DNA from: Escherichia phage vB_EcoM_Lh1B
DNA length: 64,000 nucleotides
Sequence record: OK428535.1
Reading direction: 5' to 3' (one strand)
Below, in pieces: positions 4,163 to 52,587 of the stretch. The notes under the pieces were generated by a model that was not told the DNA's origin, made no database searches, and saw only the letters and a program-made list of their open reading frames with translations. Position numbers and translations under genes: made by a program. The first letter of the stretch is position 1. Each line of letters starts with the position of its first letter.

Positions 4163-5676
4163 TGAAAGACGTCGACGTAGCGGTTATTTATACCGATGGT
4201 AGTCATACTGAGTCCCCGAAAGGTTCGGGGGCTGGTATTCATGGTTATTTATTCAACAACGGAGATTTGGAAGACAGTCAGGCTTATAGCCATCCGGGTG
4301 TTTCANAANGGATTACCACTGTTGGATANAAAAAAGNGCCGCAGGNTGNGAAGTGTCCGGNGTTGCCGGACACCGTTNAATTTNTNGACGCCGTTNTTCC
4401 CGTTCCNAAANAGTTNTNCNCAGATGTGGGNGNGTTAATCNCCTTCATCACGTTNTTTGAGAACGCGCCCTTCCGCGCGAAGAACTATATCATCTACGTG
4501 GATGCCAGTTACGTTGTAAACACTTTTAACGAGTGGATAGACGGCTGGCATAAACGTGGTTGGGTTCGTGCTGACGGTACTCCGCTGGCGAACAAAGAAC
4601 TTATTGTTCGTATCTGGGAAATCAAACAGCAGATGAAAAAAGAAGGACGGGGTGTTAAGGTTATCAAAATCAAAGGACACTCCGGCCACTACGGTAACGA
4701 CCGGGCGGACGAATTGGCTAGAAAAGGTTCAGCCATCACAGCGACCAACGACGGCGTTCCATATCAGCCGTACTGGTCGAAGGATGAGTTGCCTGCATCC
4801 GCGGAACCCGAGCCCATCGCCGCTGGGATGAACCTTGCGGCATATCCGCCTATTTGTACGGTTAAATATTGCTATCCGTTGGTGAACGAGGACCATCCTA
4901 CTGTAAAAGTGAAAGATGAAACTTTCTATTACATGTTTGGTGGCAACCATGCAAAGAACAAGGACGACTTGGTGTTTATTGGGAAAATGATTCCTGATGC
5001 ACACTTTTCCGTAATGTTCACTAAACAACCGTGGGATAACATCTACACGATTGTAAATACCCACGCCGCCCTGGCATGGAAAGATACACCGAAGATGCGG
5101 CAGTATGATCCAATCGGTGTTGTTAACAATGAGTTCGTTAAACGTAAGAAGTTCGTTGATGTGGCAGGTGATGGATTACCGGCAGACAAGATGCATTTCA
5201 GTGGAGAAGATTCCAATGTCTGGTTCTTTGAAGACCTGGCCATCTCCAGAATGCTTCGCCCGCCCTTATTGTCGTACCGTGCGCTGGATATTCGTGATGA
5301 ACTCGCTACAACGTTGCGAGATGTTCTGCATCAGGAAAAGGGTTACGTCTTAAACGACATTACCGACTTGCTATTCGACGACAAAGGTAAACCTGTCAAG
5401 GAATACTACCGTAGCGTCGATAAGTCAATAACGTTAAAGATTGACTTTCCGATGGGTAAACGACCTGTCTCGGTTATTTTGACTCGCGGTATCGATATTC
5501 CATCACGTACGGAAATCAACCGTATTAAAGAACCCGAAGGCCGTTATTACATCGCGGTGTGTCGTCCTGAAAAATACTACATCCGTTACTTCTTAATCTA
5601 TATCGGTAAAGAGTATCATGGGTTGTGGTGTGCGTATTACGCAAACCGTCGCATACTGCGAGAAGAAGAGGTGTAA
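4162..5676 (+). CDS. RNase HI-domain protein with large C-terminal extension
   Basis: 504 aa; N-terminal VAVIYTDGSH...GSGAGIHGYLF and KIKGHSGHYGNDRADELARKG match RNase HI catalytic blocks; about 350 aa of unknown function follow; N calls inside the RNase H domain. Confidence 0.65.
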   Translation: MKDVDVAVIYTDGSHTESPKGSGAGIHGYLFNNGDLEDSQAYSHPGVSXXITTVGXKKXPQXXKCPXLPDTVXFXDAVXPVXKXXXXDVXXLIXFITXFENAPFRAKNYIIYVDASYVVNTFNEWIDGWHKRGWVRADGTPLANKELIVRIWEIKQQMKKEGRGVKVIKIKGHSGHYGNDRADELARKGSAITATNDGVPYQPYWSKDELPASAEPEPIAAGMNLAAYPPICTVKYCYPLVNEDHPTVKVKDETFYYMFGGNHAKNKDDLVFIGKMIPDAHFSVMFTKQPWDNIYTIVNTHAALAWKDTPKMRQYDPIGVVNNEFVKRKKFVDVAGDGLPADKMHFSGEDSNVWFFEDLAISRMLRPPLLSYRALDIRDELATTLRDVLHQEKGYVLNDITDLLFDDKGKPVKEYYRSVDKSITLKIDFPMGKRPVSVILTRGIDIPSRTEINRIKEPEGRYYIAVCRPEKYYIRYFLIYIGKEYHGLWCAYYANRRILREEEV

Positions 5677-6421: not shown

Positions 6422-6439
6422 GAGATAGATATTATCTAC
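6422..6439 (+). promoter_or_regulatory. candidate phage promoter motif (AT-rich TATATTAC-like family)
   Basis: GAGATAGATATTATCTAC about 33 nt upstream of 6472 start; related motifs at 14951..14978 and 46607..46634. Confidence 0.35.
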
Positions 6440-9098: not shown

Positions 9099-9102
9099 TT
9101 AA

Positions 9103-9137
9103 ACGGACACTCTTCGGGGTGTCCGTAGTTTTATTTT
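9103..9137 (+). terminator. intrinsic terminator
   Basis: Stem ACGGACAC / GTGTCCGT with TTCG-containing loop, then T-tract. Confidence 0.6.
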
Positions 9138-9149
9138 AATCGACCATTA
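9136..9149 (+). promoter_or_regulatory. conserved upstream element TTAATCGACCATTA
   Basis: Same 14-mer (one variant) found at 46657..46670 and 47536..47549, each 17-19 nt upstream of an ATG with AAGGA(G) RBS between. Confidence 0.3.
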
Positions 9150-9166
9150 ATCTAAAGGAGTATTAA

Positions 9167-10090
9167 ATGGACAGCTTTCTTTTTGATTTGGCAGAATCGG
9201 TAAATGTAGATGTAATCGGTATGCGCGAATCCCCGAGTAATTTCTTAAACGGTCTTACTAAAATCGACGAACGTGTGAAATCCAGAAGTGGAGATCCCGC
9301 CATCATCGAGCAATACGCAATAGCCCATTGTGGCGAGATAGGCCAGCACTTTATACCGATTGAGGCGTTCCTAAAGAACTGCTTCGCCGAAGAATGCACC
9401 GCAGACTTCCTGTCTCTTGCCTACGGCTGGCGATACGGGGGTATCCAAATGGAATTTGATCTTAATATTTTTGAACAAGTTCTACTTGGCGACGTTCTCA
9501 CTGAGATACCACGCAGCTGGATAGACAAGATTCCCGGTTGGGCCGTCTCCTTTTCAGTGTGCTATCGCGCTAAAGATATCGGTATCCAAGAAAAGACTTA
9601 CGTTTTCGGTCGGCGAATGTTTAAAGGGAAAGATTGTTTAACAATGATGATTTTTGGAAAACGTATCGAGGGGGAAACCTTTGAAATCGTGGACGTGGGT
9701 GACGGCTTTGTATCCTTGCGTGTGGCGGAAACTGGTACGCCGGCCAATGAGAAAACGTTACGCATTGTCGGCGCTACCATGTTTACATTCTCACTGATCC
9801 CGCACAACCCTACACCCGTCAAACTGAGACAATTAACTGGAAAGAAACGTATCGCCAATTACCACATTGAACCAAAATCTAAACCGACTGTCCTCTCCAC
9901 CGTAAAAGCACAAAGCGAGTATCTTGAAGAATTTGATACTGATACGGAGAAAAGAACACAAGGTAGCAGATGTGCGCATATGCGTCGTGCACACTGGTGT
10001 ACTTACTGGCTCGGTCCACGTGACGGGAATCGGACAAAGATTTTGAAATGGATACCGCCGACATTTGTCAACGGTTCTAAATGCAAATAA
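9167..10090 (+). CDS. hypothetical protein
   Basis: 307-aa ORF with AAGGAG RBS. Confidence 0.6.
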   Translation: MDSFLFDLAESVNVDVIGMRESPSNFLNGLTKIDERVKSRSGDPAIIEQYAIAHCGEIGQHFIPIEAFLKNCFAEECTADFLSLAYGWRYGGIQMEFDLNIFEQVLLGDVLTEIPRSWIDKIPGWAVSFSVCYRAKDIGIQEKTYVFGRRMFKGKDCLTMMIFGKRIEGETFEIVDVGDGFVSLRVAETGTPANEKTLRIVGATMFTFSLIPHNPTPVKLRQLTGKKRIANYHIEPKSKPTVLSTVKAQSEYLEEFDTDTEKRTQGSRCAHMRRAHWCTYWLGPRDGNRTKILKWIPPTFVNGSKCK

Positions 10091-14950: not shown

Positions 14951-14978
14951 AAAAGAACTCAGACAGATATTATCTATC
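14951..14978 (+). promoter_or_regulatory. candidate phage promoter motif (AT-rich family)
   Basis: AAAAGAACTCAGACAGATATTATCTATC, near-identical in its first half to 46607..46634. Confidence 0.35.
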
Positions 14979-22785: not shown

Positions 22786-23553
22786 ATGATGAAGCTCTTT
22801 GCGTTCTCCGATGAATTCTACACAGTGGAATTCGACGACTACGAATACGGGTTATTAGGGGCCGTCGACATGGAAGACGCTAAACGGCAGCTTCCCACTA
22901 GCGAAATAGAAATCATTGAGATTGGGGAAACTAATCTTAGTGGTATTTTGATGCTGGGGCGGCGACCNCGNCCTGNGGAACCNGNGNNGGAAAAANAGNA
23001 AANGNNANNGNTTTTTTTGGTTTTTGAGCCGAAAGACCCCGCAGCGATAGCGAAGGTAGTCGATACGTTACGGCCACAGATTGGCGTCGCGATTGAAAAT
23101 TATCGNTGGGCTCGTTTCTCAGGCGACACGCCGATATTTTCGAATAAGCACTGGTTGTTATGTATCAACAACGACACGATAATGGTACCGTTAACAGGGG
23201 AGAAGAATTTTGAAGATAACTTCGTCCCTGGCGAAGAGTCTGTTATCTTCGAGTATACCCATGTCATCGGAAAGCCGAGCTTCTACCAAGTTCTGATTGA
23301 TGTCTTGACTCACGTCGGTCGAACCATCGAATACCACTACTGGGCACGCCAGGCGCGTTCTAAATGGTTCTCGTTGACGTACGTCGAAGGTTGGGAACGT
23401 GTTGTTGAAAAGATTGACGGGCGCTATGAGCAGATTTGGTTCCTGAACCCGGCTTTCCGTGAAGAATTACCCGCATGGGTAAAAGAAGAGGCGAGCAAGC
23501 TGACGGTTGGCTTTACTAAGCAGGGCGCGCCGTATATGGTTAACTACAAATAA
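22786..23553 (+). CDS. hypothetical protein
   Basis: 255-aa ORF; contains an N-rich homopolymer-like stretch (22968-23011) without frame loss. Confidence 0.55.
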   Translation: MMKLFAFSDEFYTVEFDDYEYGLLGAVDMEDAKRQLPTSEIEIIEIGETNLSGILMLGRRXXPXEXXXEKXXXXXXFLVFEPKDPAAIAKVVDTLRPQIGVAIENYXWARFSGDTPIFSNKHWLLCINNDTIMVPLTGEKNFEDNFVPGEESVIFEYTHVIGKPSFYQVLIDVLTHVGRTIEYHYWARQARSKWFSLTYVEGWERVVEKIDGRYEQIWFLNPAFREELPAWVKEEASKLTVGFTKQGAPYMVNYK

Positions 23554-23564
23554 GGTGAAAACAG

Positions 23565-24044
23565 ATGTCTATAACTCGGATCGATTATCGTGCCGTAGTA
23601 AAAGAACTGTCCAAAGGTCTTATCGAACTGGACTCCGATGAAGCCCGCAACTGTGGCTTCCTGCCACACATTGCACTGAGTGAGTTCCGTACCATCCGTT
23701 ACGGTGCCGGTCGTCAGAAGGGCGTTACAACACACACCGTTGATATGTCAGCAAAGTTCCACGGCAGCGTTCTGTATCTGGTCCACAATGAATCGTTACG
23801 AAACGAAGTAGTGGAGAAGTTCCATGAAAAGGCTGCCGGGAACGGTTGGTTGACCGTGCACTGTAACTACTTGCCTGAGGGTTGGAAACGCGCGACAGGT
23901 GCTGGTATATCCGGCTACGAGAAATTCGGCTTGGTTATTGTCGACGAAGCGGGTTTCTTCTTCAACAAGTTCAGTTACGATAAAATCTATCGCAGTCTGG
24001 TTGACGTAGTAACGCCAGACGTTGTGATTCACCTGATTAATTAA
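23565..24044 (+). CDS. hypothetical protein
   Basis: 159-aa ORF. Confidence 0.5.
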   Translation: MSITRIDYRAVVKELSKGLIELDSDEARNCGFLPHIALSEFRTIRYGAGRQKGVTTHTVDMSAKFHGSVLYLVHNESLRNEVVEKFHEKAAGNGWLTVHCNYLPEGWKRATGAGISGYEKFGLVIVDEAGFFFNKFSYDKIYRSLVDVVTPDVVIHLIN

Positions 24045-35522: not shown

Positions 35523-35698
35523 CGCCGACTTCCTGGCAACATTCAGGGTACTGAGTATCGGGCTTCGTTTTTTCTCGTCTTTGGGACGGGGNGGTTCNCC
35601 NAAANCNTCCCANTCGTCGANTNTATCTAAATCNATATCATCNAAACCNTCTTTNCCTCTTTTTGCCNTAANNTTTNTTCCAATTNAGGAGNTTAAAA

Positions 35699-37312
35699 AT
35701 GACAAAGCTAAAATGGGTTNACTTTTACTTGTTAAACNNCAACAAGTCCCTGGTGTCGCATTTAAAACCAGTTACAACAACAGACACCTTTCAGGGACTG
35801 ACGAAAAACTTTCACCCTGAAGGACTGTATTCAACCGAAATTTTTGGCCTCACAGGGAGCGAAGCACGAGACTCAACGTTCTCGTACATTGATATCAAAC
35901 TGGATATCATTTCGCCGACCGTTTGTTTGGCATTGTTCCAGCTGAAACAGCTGTACGAAGAAATCTGTTCCGGGAAGCGATTCGCTATCTGGAATGAGAA
36001 AGAAAAAGATTTCGAGCCGGCTCTGCCCAGTGATAAAGGTGCAGACACCGGCTTCAACTTCTTCCTACGCTACTACGAACAACTGACACCGGGACGCAAC
36101 GAATCGATGCGTCGCGACGAGACAGTCGATTTCTTCAATAAGTTCCGTCCGGTCAGTCTCAGCCGCTATGTGCTGGTTCTGCCTGCGGGATTACGTGATT
36201 TGGTCATTCGTCAGGATGGCCGCGACCAAGAAGAAGAGATTGGCGGACTCTACCGTCGTCTGATTTCTCTGGCGCGTGCAATCCCCGACCGCAGTACGCG
36301 AACGGAACTGACTGACCCGGTTCGCTGGAAGCTCCAACAAACCTTTAATGATATCTGGATGTACTTCTTCAACATCCAGGATGGTAAAGGTGGTTTTGCA
36401 CGTCGTAAAGTGACGTCACGTAAGTTAATGAACGGTACGCGTAACGTACTGTCTTCATTCTCAACCGGTTCCAAGGTCATGGGTCGCGAAGATGCGATTC
36501 GTCCAACGGATACCCGTATCGGTTTGTACCAAACCCTGAAGGCATTACTGCCTGTGGCTCAATACCACATCCGTGAACGTTACCTCAGTAACATCCGGGC
36601 AGGGGACGGCAACTTATACGGCGTTAACACCAAAACACTCAAGCGTGAGTTCCTGGAAGTCTCCGGGCGGGTGTATGACCTTTTCACTACCGACGATGGC
36701 ATCGAAACACTCATCAACAGAATGGAAGCGCGCGAGCTTCGACATAAACCGCTGATGATTGATCCGGACCATTACGTGGCATTAATCTACCAGGACAAAC
36801 GCAGCTTCAAAATCTTTTACGATATTGAAGACCTGCCGGAAGGACGTGACCGCAAGCTTGTCCGCGGACTGAGCTTAGCAGAACTCCTCTATTTGTCAGG
36901 TTACGATATTTGGAATGACTACTTCTCGTTCATCACGCGTTATCCGGTTACGGGACGCGGTTCGACTTACTCCTCGACCATAAGATTGGAGACCACCACC
37001 TCTTCCCTCTATTTGCATGAACTGGAAGACGATTGGGNCACGTTAAAAGANAAGGGNGCAATTNGNTTCCCTGACCGTACCGTGAAAACNTTTGTGGAAT
37101 CCATGGCACCACATCCANCCCNATTAGGGGGNTTGGGNGGNGACNACGANGGNGACACCGGCNCANCAAANAGCCCGATGTCAACCGAAGCGCTCGNGGA
37201 AAATCGGAAGTGGGTCAGTTCGAAAAACTACTGGTTTGCAACAGACGGCAGTTTCAAAATCAATCCGGTTAACAACGTGATTAAAAGAACGACTGCTGCG
37301 CTGTTGAAATGA
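35699..37312 (+). CDS. RNA polymerase beta-prime-like subunit, N-terminal-half homologue
   Basis: 537 aa; ordered blocks VLVLPAGLRDLV, GGLYRRLI, GKGGFARRKVTSRKLMNGTRNVL, ITRYPVTGRGS, K.AI.FP and GGD-x-[D/E]-GDTG (37142..37156) match beta-prime lid/rudder/DPBB/catalytic-loop blocks; AGGAG RBS. Confidence 0.6.
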   Translation: MTKLKWVXFYLLNXNKSLVSHLKPVTTTDTFQGLTKNFHPEGLYSTEIFGLTGSEARDSTFSYIDIKLDIISPTVCLALFQLKQLYEEICSGKRFAIWNEKEKDFEPALPSDKGADTGFNFFLRYYEQLTPGRNESMRRDETVDFFNKFRPVSLSRYVLVLPAGLRDLVIRQDGRDQEEEIGGLYRRLISLARAIPDRSTRTELTDPVRWKLQQTFNDIWMYFFNIQDGKGGFARRKVTSRKLMNGTRNVLSSFSTGSKVMGREDAIRPTDTRIGLYQTLKALLPVAQYHIRERYLSNIRAGDGNLYGVNTKTLKREFLEVSGRVYDLFTTDDGIETLINRMEARELRHKPLMIDPDHYVALIYQDKRSFKIFYDIEDLPEGRDRKLVRGLSLAELLYLSGYDIWNDYFSFITRYPVTGRGSTYSSTIRLETTTSSLYLHELEDDWXTLKXKXAIXFPDRTVKXFVESMAPHPXXLGXLXXDXXXDTGXXXSPMSTEALXENRKWVSSKNYWFATDGSFKINPVNNVIKRTTAALLK

Positions 37313-45994: not shown

Positions 45995-46543
45995 ATGTTT
46001 TATCTGGATAGCGATGGCGTTTTTGCACGCTGGCGTAAATACGTTTTATCCACACATTTTCCCGGAANGACGATTAAAGAGTTTAACGCATTACCTGAAC
46101 TCCGCCGTCGTAGTTTGGTTCGTTCGATGTATCAGAACGATCCTGACTTGTTTTACAAACTCGAACCAATTGAGGGTGTAGAGCGAATCCTGGAAACGGT
46201 AGATAGACTTTGCGACAGTTGGGCAATACTCACCTCTGGGTCAGAAGATCACTACGACCACCAATTGGTTGTGGATTCAAAACAACGGTGGTTCATGAAG
46301 CACTTTGGGGTACCAGCTGACAAAGTCATCGTCACCGAAAGTTCAGGGCAGAAGAAAGCTTACGCCTCGCGAGGTAATTTGCTTGTCGACGATTATGGTC
46401 GTAACTGTCGAGAATGGATTTTGCAAGGTGGTGCGGCGATATGGTCGCGAACTGAAGAACCGAACATTGATGGCATTTGCCTCCAGTGTGAAGCGTTCTA
46501 CAATGACCCGATTACTCACTCGGGGACACTACTGCAAGTCTAA
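45995..46543 (+). CDS. HAD-superfamily nucleotidase-like protein (candidate 5'(3')-deoxyribonucleotidase)
   Basis: N-terminal FYLDSDGV matches HAD motif I (hhhDxDG[TV]); in-frame ATG at 45995 with AAGGA RBS. Confidence 0.45.
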   Translation: MFYLDSDGVFARWRKYVLSTHFPGXTIKEFNALPELRRRSLVRSMYQNDPDLFYKLEPIEGVERILETVDRLCDSWAILTSGSEDHYDHQLVVDSKQRWFMKHFGVPADKVIVTESSGQKKAYASRGNLLVDDYGRNCREWILQGGAAIWSRTEEPNIDGICLQCEAFYNDPITHSGTLLQV

Positions 46544-46552
46544 GCTCTACTA

Positions 46553-46596
46553 GGCTCATCCTATCTTCGGATACGGGTGAGCCTTTTTATTTTATT
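46553..46596 (+). terminator. intrinsic terminator
   Basis: Long hairpin GGCTCATCC-TATC-TTCG-GATA-C-GGGTGAGCC followed by TTTTTATTTTATT. Confidence 0.6.
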
Positions 46597-46606
46597 AATT
46601 GCATTC

Positions 46607-46634
46607 AAAAAGAACTGAGATATATATTACTTAG
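46607..46634 (+). promoter_or_regulatory. candidate phage promoter motif containing TATATTAC
   Basis: AAAAAGAACTGAGATATATATTACTTAGG between a terminator and the next gene. Confidence 0.4.
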
Positions 46635-46656
46635 GTGAGCGTTACACGTTAACGCT

Positions 46657-46670
46657 TTAATCGACTATTA
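46657..46670 (+). promoter_or_regulatory. conserved upstream element TTAATCGACTATTA
   Basis: Variant of the 14-mer at 9136 and 47536; 19 nt upstream of ATG with AAGGAG between. Confidence 0.3.
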
Positions 46671-46689
46671 CCCAGAAGGAGTATTTACA

Positions 46690-47088
46690 ATGACTAACCA
46701 ACTACGCCAAGACCCGTTTGTTGCCATGATGCTTTGTGCTAAAGCCGAGAGCAACGAAGCCGATTTAATTCGTCTGTTGACTGATGACGAATACCTTATC
46801 TCTGAACGTGATAAACGTTTAGAAGAACTCTATAAGCCAGAAACCGGTGAATCGCTCGGTAATCAAAACGCCTGGAAATTTCTTATTCTCGTAGCTGATG
46901 AAAAATGGCGAGCAGAAAATCCCATCGTCTGCGATATTACAGACTTACCGTACAAATACGGCGGACTCATCACTAGCGACCTGCATCTTAAAGCGTTCTT
47001 TGCTGGTGAAGCAATTCAAGAACTGCAAGATGTTCTTGTTACAGCAACAAACACTTTGAGACGTTTACGCGCTGAGCAGCTAATCTGA
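46690..47088 (+). CDS. hypothetical protein
   Basis: 132-aa ORF with AAGGAG RBS. Confidence 0.5.
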   Translation: MTNQLRQDPFVAMMLCAKAESNEADLIRLLTDDEYLISERDKRLEELYKPETGESLGNQNAWKFLILVADEKWRAENPIVCDITDLPYKYGGLITSDLHLKAFFAGEAIQELQDVLVTATNTLRRLRAEQLI

Positions 47089-47142
47089 TCCCTCAAAAAT
47101 AACGAATCGTACAAATCCTTTGACTGTGTAGGAAGGAATAAA

Positions 47143-47532
47143 ATGAAAATCGCAGAGGGGTTAGTAGATGCGTGCAGAGACCCATTCACGCTATGGGTTC
47201 TTTGTGGCTTGCGCCGAGACGATCGTTTCGGTGAGTTTGTTCGAAATCCAGATGCTTTACTAAGCTTCGTAGAAAGCGAGGAGAAGCGTTTAGAGGAGAT
47301 TAAAGAGGAAAGTAGTACCCTTACACCAGATATGGTGGTTTATAGCCGTATGACGTCACACAGGTGGCGTACGACCCATCGGCTGAAGGGAACCTCAATG
47401 AAGGAATTGATTGAAGGGTTATCAAAGGCGCTTTCGTCTGATAACATTATCTGGCCGGTGGTGTATACCAACGAAGACCATTCTGATAACGTGAAGGTTA
47501 CACTGACACGTTGTTATCACACATTCTCGTAG
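47143..47532 (+). CDS. hypothetical protein
   Basis: 129-aa ORF. Confidence 0.5.
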   Translation: MKIAEGLVDACRDPFTLWVLCGLRRDDRFGEFVRNPDALLSFVESEEKRLEEIKEESSTLTPDMVVYSRMTSHRWRTTHRLKGTSMKELIEGLSKALSSDNIIWPVVYTNEDHSDNVKVTLTRCYHTFS

Positions 47533-47535
47533 TAG

Positions 47536-47549
47536 TTAATCGACCATTA
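47536..47549 (+). promoter_or_regulatory. conserved upstream element TTAATCGACCATTA
   Basis: Identical 14-mer to 9136..9149; 17 nt upstream of ATG. Confidence 0.3.
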
Positions 47550-47566
47550 TCGTAAGGAATATTTAC

Positions 47567-48238
47567 ATGCAGGGCACTGAACTCAACAAACTTTGGGAAA
47601 AACTGGTTCGTCAATTCCGCGACTTCTATCGTTATACCGATAGTGCGCATCGCATGGATCACATCAACTCAGTTAAATCAAATGCGATTCGTATCGCGTA
47701 TATGCTTGGGCAAACCGAACACCTGAAGCTGATACTGATTGCGGTGGCAGCTCACGATATCTTCTCTACCAAAGAAGACCGTGCGTCGCACCACATCAAA
47801 GGGTATAGCTGGATACTGGATAACAAGCCAGTGCTCAAACGTAAGTATAAACTTACCGATGATGAATGTTTGACGATTGCCCATGCAGTCTTAGAACACC
47901 GCAGTTCTCACAAAGGGAACTACAACGGGATTGTCTCTGAGATAGTTGCCGCAGCTGACCGTGGCATACCGTCTGTAGATGACGTGAGTAATTACATGCA
48001 CCGTTCTTATCTGTTTGCCCGTGAACAGGGTAAAAGTAAAGGCGATGCAAAATTCCATGCCGTTGGTCACGTCCAACAGAAGTTCGGACGCAACGGTGTT
48101 AGTAATATCCCTAGTTGGTACGGTACGCTCTTCGCAGAGCGCATTCTGGAACGCAGGGATTTCGTGGAGCAGCTAGATATTAGCTATTTCACAGATACCA
48201 TTATCGATGACCTCGAAGCTCGTCTTTCTCATAACTGA
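47567..48238 (+). CDS. HD-domain phosphohydrolase
   Basis: 223 aa; H...HD...H...D pattern (HRMDHINSV, AVAAHDIFS, AHAVLEHR, AAADRG). Confidence 0.5.
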   Translation: MQGTELNKLWEKLVRQFRDFYRYTDSAHRMDHINSVKSNAIRIAYMLGQTEHLKLILIAVAAHDIFSTKEDRASHHIKGYSWILDNKPVLKRKYKLTDDECLTIAHAVLEHRSSHKGNYNGIVSEIVAAADRGIPSVDDVSNYMHRSYLFAREQGKSKGDAKFHAVGHVQQKFGRNGVSNIPSWYGTLFAERILERRDFVEQLDISYFTDTIIDDLEARLSHN

Positions 48239-48956: not shown

Positions 48957-48964
48957 TAAACAAT

Positions 48965-48998
48965 GGGGTGGTCTTATGACTGCCCTATTTTTTTTTTG
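48965..48998 (+). terminator. probable intrinsic terminator
   Basis: Imperfect hairpin with two wobble pairs followed by a 10-nt T-run. Confidence 0.45.
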
Positions 48999-49012
48999 AT
49001 TTTGGAGCTACA

Positions 49013-52530: not shown

Positions 52531-52587
52531 GGAACGTCTCCATATATTCGTCTTAAAGACCTGATGGTCATACTAAGGATCATACTC

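Follow-up and report, generated by a model that had tools for sequence, protein, structure and literature searches.

What does a 14-nucleotide word do just ahead of several start codons in the genome of a jumbo phage? The question arises at position 9,136 of the 64,000-nucleotide stretch of Escherichia phage vB_EcoM_Lh1B DNA (OK428535.1) analyzed here, which we refer to in its entirety as the window. The window is 96–97% identical to Salmonella phage SPN3US and its relatives (Seoulvirus), and so belongs to an SPN3US-like, phiKZ-like nucleus-forming jumbo phage with virion and non-virion RNA polymerases. SPN3US serves as a genetic model for the enterobacterial nucleus-forming jumbo phages. In the literature searched, we found neither a catalogue of its regulatory signals nor a promoter study or transcription-start map, nor any 5'-end data for transcripts of its phage group, and no paper mentions the motif, whose string is present only as unrelated primers. 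Our answer is that the core of this word, TCGACYAT, is a real gene-expression signal, apparently undescribed, because it is kept across phage genera. How it works is a more tentative matter: the reading we favor, to which we give a probability of a little under 40%, is a single-stranded operator or cleavage site on a subset of early mRNAs.

All three copies of the 14-mer TTAATCGACYATTA named in the original prediction, at 9136, 46657, and 47536, were recovered on the + strand, each with an ATG 17–19 nt further on and a Shine–Dalgarno (SD) sequence, AAGGAG or AAGGA, between the two (Table 1). All three lie outside genes and read in the same direction as the gene they precede; the gp250 and gp251 homologues are 34 nt apart, and copy 3 takes up most of that space. 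Chance can be set aside as an origin. The Y-degenerate 14-mer has three exact matches against 0.00 expected from 100 dinucleotide-preserving shuffles, and the 10-mer TCGACYATTA has three against 0.24 expected, a count reached in 0 of 100 shuffles; moreover, the core is kept across genera. At up to two mismatches, the window holds no further 14-mer copies, while the bare 8-mer core occurs five times in its coding sequence, which is about background. Hundreds of clustered N bases (e.g., 1458–1592, 2722–2798, 4306–4455, 22968–23011, 35592–35739, and 37038–37197) led us to treat the window as a low-quality assembly; none falls inside the three copies, and weak family members might be masked elsewhere.

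Table 1. Features of the motif-bearing loci and of the other signals discussed, with positions in the window unless another sequence is named.
Feature	Position	Strand	Remarks
Intrinsic-terminator-like hairpin	9103-9126	+	10 bp, UUCG loop, then AGTTTTATTTT; -17.2 kcal/mol, z -5.5; U-run
Motif copy 1, TTAATCGACCATTA	9136-9149	+	Core TCGACCAT at 9140-9147; AAGGAG 5 nt on; ATG 17 nt on
SD AAGGAG of 307-aa gene	9155-9160	+	
307-aa gene (phrog_6160)	9167-10090	+	Led by copy 1; function not assignable
Terminator hairpin and U-run	46552-46584	+	-21 kcal/mol, z -6.25; ends preceding transcription unit
Early promoter GAGATATATATTACTTAGGTGAG	46617-46640	+	phiKZ virion-RNA-polymerase type; box TATATTAC at 46623-46630
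5'-terminal leader hairpin AGCGTTA-CACGT-TAACGCT	46638-46656	+	Member of variable-sequence hairpin family after early promoters
Motif copy 2, TTAATCGACTATTA	46657-46670	+	Core 46661-46668; in leader, 3' of early promoter and 5' hairpin; ATG 19 nt on
SD AAGGAG of gp249 homologue	46676-46681	+	
gp249 homologue, 132 aa (phrog_27024)	46690-47088	+	Led by copy 2; function not assignable
Motif copy 3, TTAATCGACCATTA	47536-47549	+	Core 47540-47547; ATG 17 nt on
SD AAGGA of gp251 homologue	47554-47558	+	
gp251 homologue, 223 aa (phrog_3921)	47567-48238	+	Led by copy 3; HD-domain protein by annotation in relatives
SPN3US gp30	L002:23859-25493		Outside window
SPN3US genes led by exact 12-mer AATCGACYATTA			gp66, gp101, gp135, gp184, gp249, gp251
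SPN3US genes led by one- or two-mismatch versions			gp5, gp30, gp55, gp56, gp131, gp137
Asesino genes with matching copies			gp22, 47, 73, 83, 118, 152, 205, 271, 272
AGATAGATATTATCT class sites	6427-6436, 14965-14974 (+); SPN3US 7394, 15711, 23814, 28973, 72490, 72688, 184048, 191606		
TATGACY sites	52566-52572 (-), 48975-48981 (+), 4201-4207 (-); SPN3US 64409, 87711, 89044, 99583, 135424, 158709		
T-tract + TT(C)ACG sites	L002:5490-5501, L002:11488-11499, L003:43459-43466, L003:45791-45800		Outside window
Gene starts directly after strong terminators	SPN3US 66010, 105764, 131791, 168130, 225623		Last corresponds to window ~48962-49010

Scanning the whole SPN3US genome reveals a family of about 12 (12–13) members, all in the same orientation relative to the gene that follows, with an invariant core TCGACYAT placed 0–9 nt upstream of the SD and 11–19 nt from the start codon. 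The exact 12-mer AATCGACYATTA occurs six times, always on the + strand and 16–19 nt before an annotated start, and versions with one or two mismatches precede further genes. A weight matrix for the family separates cleanly: the 10 best sites in 240 kb all lie before gene starts, and lower scores fall to scattered coding matches. An unbiased 6-mer enrichment test, run over positions -34 to -6 of predicted starts, ranks AATCGA (14 observed, 3.2 expected) and TTAATC top after the SD words. The bare 8-mer occurs elsewhere in SPN3US about 17 times, nearly always in coding sequence and about as often as composition-matched control words. Position Y is C or T(U), and R is almost never seen there, a tolerance that fits pyrimidine read-out or pairing to G. 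All motif-led genes lie in early-gene regions; none of the copies precedes a replication or structural gene.

Conservation extends beyond Seoulvirus. Erwinia phage Asesino (Erskinevirus) carries 10 copies, nine of them at genes matching SPN3US copies; tblastn supports the orthology of gp272 and gp47, and synteny that of the rest. Protein identity between the two phages is 82% for the HD protein and 58% for the fast-evolving gp30, and their flanks upstream of the motif and spacers to the SD have altered in sequence and length. The 8-nt core is nevertheless intact at all nine gene pairs, with a single C/T change at Y, whereas just two of 10 alignable coding copies of the 8-mer are conserved (Fisher p ~0.0006). 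The left half-site, on the TAAT side, is poorly kept in Asesino; at gp101, a 25-nt run through motif, spacer, and SD is the same in both phages. Further afield, Machinavirus and ChrisDB-type phages have TCGACTATC, CCGACTATC, or TTGACYATC directly abutting AGGAG, and in CR5/Derbicus-type phages only ACYATT(A/T) is left before the SD. In front of gp30 and its counterparts, Seoulvirus and Erskinevirus retain CAATCGACTATTCG, which has decayed in Machinavirus, Kwan, and Derbicus, where the promoter box upstream of it persists. IMG/VR scans for motif plus SD and for the early promoter mostly returned chance matches in unrelated contigs, jumbo-phage contigs alone being informative. A position-locked cis element with about 12 members per genome, conserved across genera, thus stands behind what the original prediction saw as a recurring 14-mer.

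The genes marked in this way are a mixed set. Copy 1 leads the 307-aa gene, whose product has a C-terminal CAHMRRAHWCTYW stretch, and is part of an insertion/deletion cassette comprising terminator, motif, SD, and gene (window ~9099–10085), with the hairpin at 9103–9126 as its upstream boundary. The cassette is also found in phages EC001 and JN03 and is missing from SPN3US and about 30 close relatives. Asesino gp235, a 44%-identical homologue at the equivalent position, sits behind a terminator and a variant motif, TCGACAATTG, which indicates that the cassette is old and was lost in SPN3US. Two of the SPN3US genes have recognizable products. gp101 encodes a 121-aa protein with an XRE/Cro-type HTH_3 domain; an early promoter drives it, and its own leader holds a perfect motif copy. 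gp30 is homologous to PHIKZ068, which is the fifth, sigma-like subunit of the non-virion RNA polymerase (E 2e-6 to PDB 7OGP_B). For gp30 the annotated start is probably not the true one, which we place at an ATG 27 nt further upstream, at 23859. Apart from gp101, gp30, and gp251, the motif-led genes drew no function from Pfam, PHROGs, or PDB, the gp251 homologue of the window has no Pfam match, and Pfam and PHROG scans of the motif-led genes found no RNA-binding domain.

Seven of the 12 SPN3US copies lie 28–37 nt downstream of a strongly conserved early promoter, GATATATATTACYTAGGTGAG. In phiKZ-like phages, transcription starts about 10 nt after the center of the AT-rich box (PMC7598289, PMC11512511, PMC8244752), so by analogy these seven motifs would fall inside the early 5' UTR. 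The motif is accordingly presumed to be transcribed into early mRNA leaders, including that at 46657, where the AT-rich element of the original prediction proved to be the promoter box, separated from the motif by 26 nt. Neither 9136 nor 47536 has this box upstream, and no promoter-like site lies directly upstream of the latter. The remaining copies (gp56, gp131, gp137, gp184, and gp251) lie within operons that start at early promoters.

Every early promoter that precedes a motif copy is separated from it by a small hairpin, the sequence of which differs from leader to leader. Across the first 32 nt of 27 unique early leaders, drawn from SPN3US, Asesino, Machina, ChrisDB, and IMG/VR jumbo contigs (L002–L006, L046–L047, and L050–L169), the mean z score against shuffles is -2.8, and 23 of the 27 fall below -1.5. 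The stems show compensatory changes and some G.U pairs; the hairpin following GATATATATTACYTAGGTGAG is probably a stabilizing stem-loop at the 5' end of early mRNAs. That hairpins of differing sequence are maintained by compensatory change points to RNA-level selection on the motif-bearing leaders. No predicted leader fold pairs the motif itself.

Some early leaders are organized differently. The SPN3US gp180 leader (L005:15691–15782) has an early promoter, within about 25 nt a 5' hairpin, and, still ahead of the gene, a strong terminator, and in Asesino and a metagenomic relative (L169:16036–16153; L091) an early-promoter leader of about 100 nt is conserved between both; attenuators or short early RNAs are possible explanations for the two types. 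Separately, the leader of the phiKZ chimallin gene phiKZ054, AACCATAATCGTAAAGGTATTTAAAATG (L172:45620–45650), resembles the gp251 leader, GACCATTATCGTAAGGAATATTTACATG (window 47542–47569).

Terminators form the other part of this setting. The original prediction placed two of the motif copies just after a terminator, which holds in full only for 9136, where the hairpin ends 9 nt upstream: at 46657 some 70 nt, containing the early promoter and the small leader hairpin, separate the terminator from the motif, and at 47536 the upstream hairpin is no more stable than shuffled sequence (z -0.04) and lacks a T-run. Elsewhere, the motif directly follows an intrinsic terminator at SPN3US gp184, at the gp180 variant, and at Asesino gp73 and gp235. 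Many SPN3US genes start 20–30 nt after a strong terminator with only a T-run and an SD between, which implies either substantial terminator read-through or promoters that cannot be recognized.

Why, then, favor an element that works in the mRNA? The motif is by all appearances transcribed, predicted to be single-stranded, tightly coupled to the SD, and confined to a subset of early genes, and no promoter slot is obviously empty. As RNA, UCGACYAU (usually UUAAUCGACYAUUA) would act just 5' of the SD in about 12 early-gene leaders and would be read in the cytoplasm by a sequence-specific trans-factor, most likely a phage-encoded RNA-binding repressor or endoribonuclease and less likely a host factor. 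Such a factor may occlude the adjacent ribosome-binding site, or may cut between the protective 5' hairpin and the SD, a nuclease cut at the motif thereby removing the hairpin. In either event, translation of the marked early messages would be set or shut off together. Both the action as RNA and the existence of a trans-factor are what we infer from this arrangement, and no candidate for the factor, including a RegA or RegB homologue, was identified. Control in the cytoplasm is an attractive option for a phage whose DNA is enclosed (PMC13282480).

Several observations count against an RNA-level role or narrow its form. A translational enhancer pairing with 16S rRNA, of the T7 epsilon type, was rejected, since complementarity is nothing special: the best duplex with Escherichia coli 16S rRNA reaches -8.9 kcal/mol against a shuffle mean of -10.4. 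No complementary RNA is apparent in the phage, where the motif has no non-coding reverse-complement copy and the minus-strand 8-mers are all coding, which disposes of an antisense or small-RNA partner encoded there. Nor is a known RNA family involved, Rfam 15 giving 0 matches in the window at gathering score and 0 in 46500–47700 at E<=1. Local structure involving the motif was likewise discarded, since it is unpaired in predicted folds and its TAAT/ATTA arms are too weak and not kept in Asesino. Lastly, copies that follow strong terminators can work as RNA elements only if the terminators are read through.

The foremost competitor is a secondary promoter overlapping its own start site, probably read by the non-virion polymerase or a modified form of it, which we regard as possible yet on the unlikely side. 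Transcription would begin either at the G of TCGAC or where the motif ends on its 3' side, so that certain early genes would be transcribed again in a later, second wave, with a 5' UTR of about 12–27 nt. The start-site consensus elements of jumbo-phage non-virion polymerases are indeed very short, T(-3)ATG(+1) in phiKZ and AACA-N6-TA in AR9 (PMC7598289, PMC7618050), and GACY is common to the motif (AATCGACY) and to a set of conserved TATGACY sites (TATGACC), so that a DNA-level reading comes naturally. Early and later promoters in tandem have a precedent at phiKZ054 (PMC8244752) and in the continuously expressed genes of AR9 (PMC7598289). Copies occupying the slot directly behind a terminator (9136, gp184, gp180, and Asesino gp73 and gp235) fit as well, and because the motif-bearing gp30 is a homologue of the sigma-like subunit, such a promoter would give positive feedback.

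Other signals are present in the genome. Besides the early promoter there is a second AT-rich, promoter-like class, (G/C)AGATAGATATTATCT, with nine copies about 40–47 nt before starts; it precedes gp30 and an RNA-polymerase beta-subunit gene, and before the gp30 homologue it is conserved out to Derbicus. TATGACY occurs 24–42 nt ahead of several genes, that for the tail sheath among them, is conserved at matching Asesino positions and before the CR5 sheath gene, and is a likely counterpart of the phiKZ late promoter TATG(+1). A long T-tract with TT(C)ACG directly follows terminators 32–45 nt or more before gp6, gp18, gp100, and gp104, among them the genes for DNA polymerase (gp18) and thymidylate kinase (gp100); it is a candidate middle-promoter class and resembles the phiKZ middle-promoter layout (PMC8244752). 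The early, middle, and late classes of phiKZ thus all seem to have counterparts in SPN3US, which makes TCGACYAT an additional element.

The original prediction offered three functions, a second promoter class, a transcription start element, and a regulator's binding site, each of which keeps some probability. A plain second promoter class meets some contrary evidence, namely a site in the 5' UTR, close SD coupling, and the promoter classes in place. The motif lies 0–9 nt from the SD, far tighter than the 9–24 nt of TATGACY sites, and where it touches the SD (Machina, ChrisDB, gp131, gp137, and gp5), initiation at its 3' end would give a transcript with hardly any leader. The part most widely kept in distant relatives is the 3' half (ACYATT, CR5-like), not TCG. 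There are only some 12 sites, early-type genes alone being served. The argument that a gene behind a terminator needs a promoter is weak because so many SPN3US genes follow terminators with nothing but a T-run and an SD; post-terminator position as such needs none. Finally, secondary start sites in phiKZ number only 2 of 65, phiKZ054 being one of the two genes concerned (PMC8244752).

Nor does the motif match the established promoters with which it was compared. Like the late promoters of phiKZ and AR9, it is very short, oriented, near the gene start, and conserved within a group, and a tandem arrangement with an early promoter has precedent; unlike them, it has another sequence, lies nearer the SD, and occurs in about 12 copies, all at early-type genes. 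The phiKZ-type late promoter, T(-3)ATG(+1), requires all four bases (PMC7598289), whereas the motif has no TATG and, with the TATGACY sites of SPN3US, nothing but GACY in common. With the AR9 late promoter, A(-11)ACA-N6-T(A/G)(+1), read from template-strand uracil (PMC7598289), AATC-GACYAT-TA agrees only in AA...TA, and the invariant bases of the motif fall within the N6 part. The phiKZ-type early promoter of the virion polymerase, an AT-rich box of about 10 nt near -10, TATATTAC-like, is present in the same leaders, just upstream of seven of the 12 copies, but the motif is a separate element: it sits 28–37 nt downstream, its core is not AT-rich, and it also occurs without the promoter (9136 and 47536). 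A consensus scan for sigma-70 promoters (TTGACA, 16–18 nt, TATAAT) found none at or ending near any of the three window copies. A resemblance to the T7 promoter, TAATACGACTCACTATA, needs two gaps, no single-subunit polymerase is annotated in SPN3US, and we take it as coincidence.

Considerably less probable is a DNA operator for a phage helix-turn-helix regulator, for which gp101 is the obvious candidate. Bound between promoter and gene, or within operons, the regulator would block early transcription, and gp101 would be autoregulated. Beyond the domain, the early promoter, and the perfect copy in its own leader, with 25 nt unchanged in Asesino, the symmetry of the motif speaks for this possibility: in the SPN3US consensus, TAATCG-A-CYATTA, five of six pairs are symmetric (chance ~0.005) with half-sites one helical turn apart, and the gp137 copy, TAATCGACGATTG, is likewise symmetric in five of six. 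Such a near-palindrome suggests a DNA-binding dimer and to that extent tells against an RNA element. In length (about 13 bp) and near-symmetry the motif resembles Cro/XRE operators, whose inverted half-sites work in either orientation; other features argue against this reading. All 12–13 copies have one orientation, and the asymmetry never shifts to another position; in Asesino the left half-site is only weakly kept, in contrast to the asymmetric core TCGACYAT, which does not vary; and the motif is locked to the SD, an adjacency for which a roadblock has no need. A repressor made in the cytoplasm must, in addition, enter the vesicle or nucleus holding the phage DNA (PMC13282480).

Very improbable, finally, is that the motif has no function of its own and hitch-hikes in a leader module (terminator or hairpin, motif, SD) spread with cassettes: the leaders of the ins gene, gp56, gp66, and gp101 do have about 25–30 nt in common, spacer and SD included (and are not the otherwise unrelated leaders they had been taken for), the gene behind copy 1 is found in some close relatives and missing from others, and gene content between motif-bearing leaders differs by genus, but a module would be kept whole or lost, and a core kept nine times out of nine amid changed spacer and flanks indicates selection on the core itself. 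T4 has PeSL modules, promoter–early stem-loops that flank mobile gene cassettes. The present leaders are similar in placing a hairpin or terminator and then a conserved signal before small genes in plastic early regions, with one gene present or absent, but differ in that conservation of the motif core does not depend on its flanks; the motif showed no recombination junctions.

For the favored reading, an operator or cleavage site on early mRNAs, the closest comparison is with RegA and RegB of T4. RegA sites overlap the AUG and are degenerate, and RegB cuts inside GGAG on early mRNAs, inactivating the message. As in T4, certain early messages, about 12 here, have a short sequence at or beside their ribosome-binding site, in a leader that is transcribed (its start site placed by analogy), and it is predicted to be single-stranded, which would make joint post-transcriptional shut-off possible. 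The difference is that the word here is invariant over 8 nt and precedes the SD, and that action at the RNA level is deduced from its placement. A bolder and rather doubtful extension is a post-transcriptional regulon, in which a new RNA-binding protein or endoribonuclease would read UCGACYAU by the ribosome-binding sites of about 12 exported early messages, that of the sigma-like subunit included, and would time the early-to-middle switch from the cytoplasm, the enclosed phage DNA being out of reach.

Whatever its mode of action, the motif marks out a few early genes as a conserved set. Two of them encode the sigma-like non-virion polymerase subunit and a helix-turn-helix regulator, and the membership of these two makes it likely that the set bears on sustaining or shutting off the early program. 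It also provides experiments with a concrete target of 8–14 nt. The promoters of jumbo-phage polymerases are notoriously ill-defined, and if the motif is a promoter, it would represent an additional and unusually well-defined class for these enzymes. An RNA-level mode of action would make it the first post-transcriptional operator with sequence specificity to be described for the SPN3US phage family.
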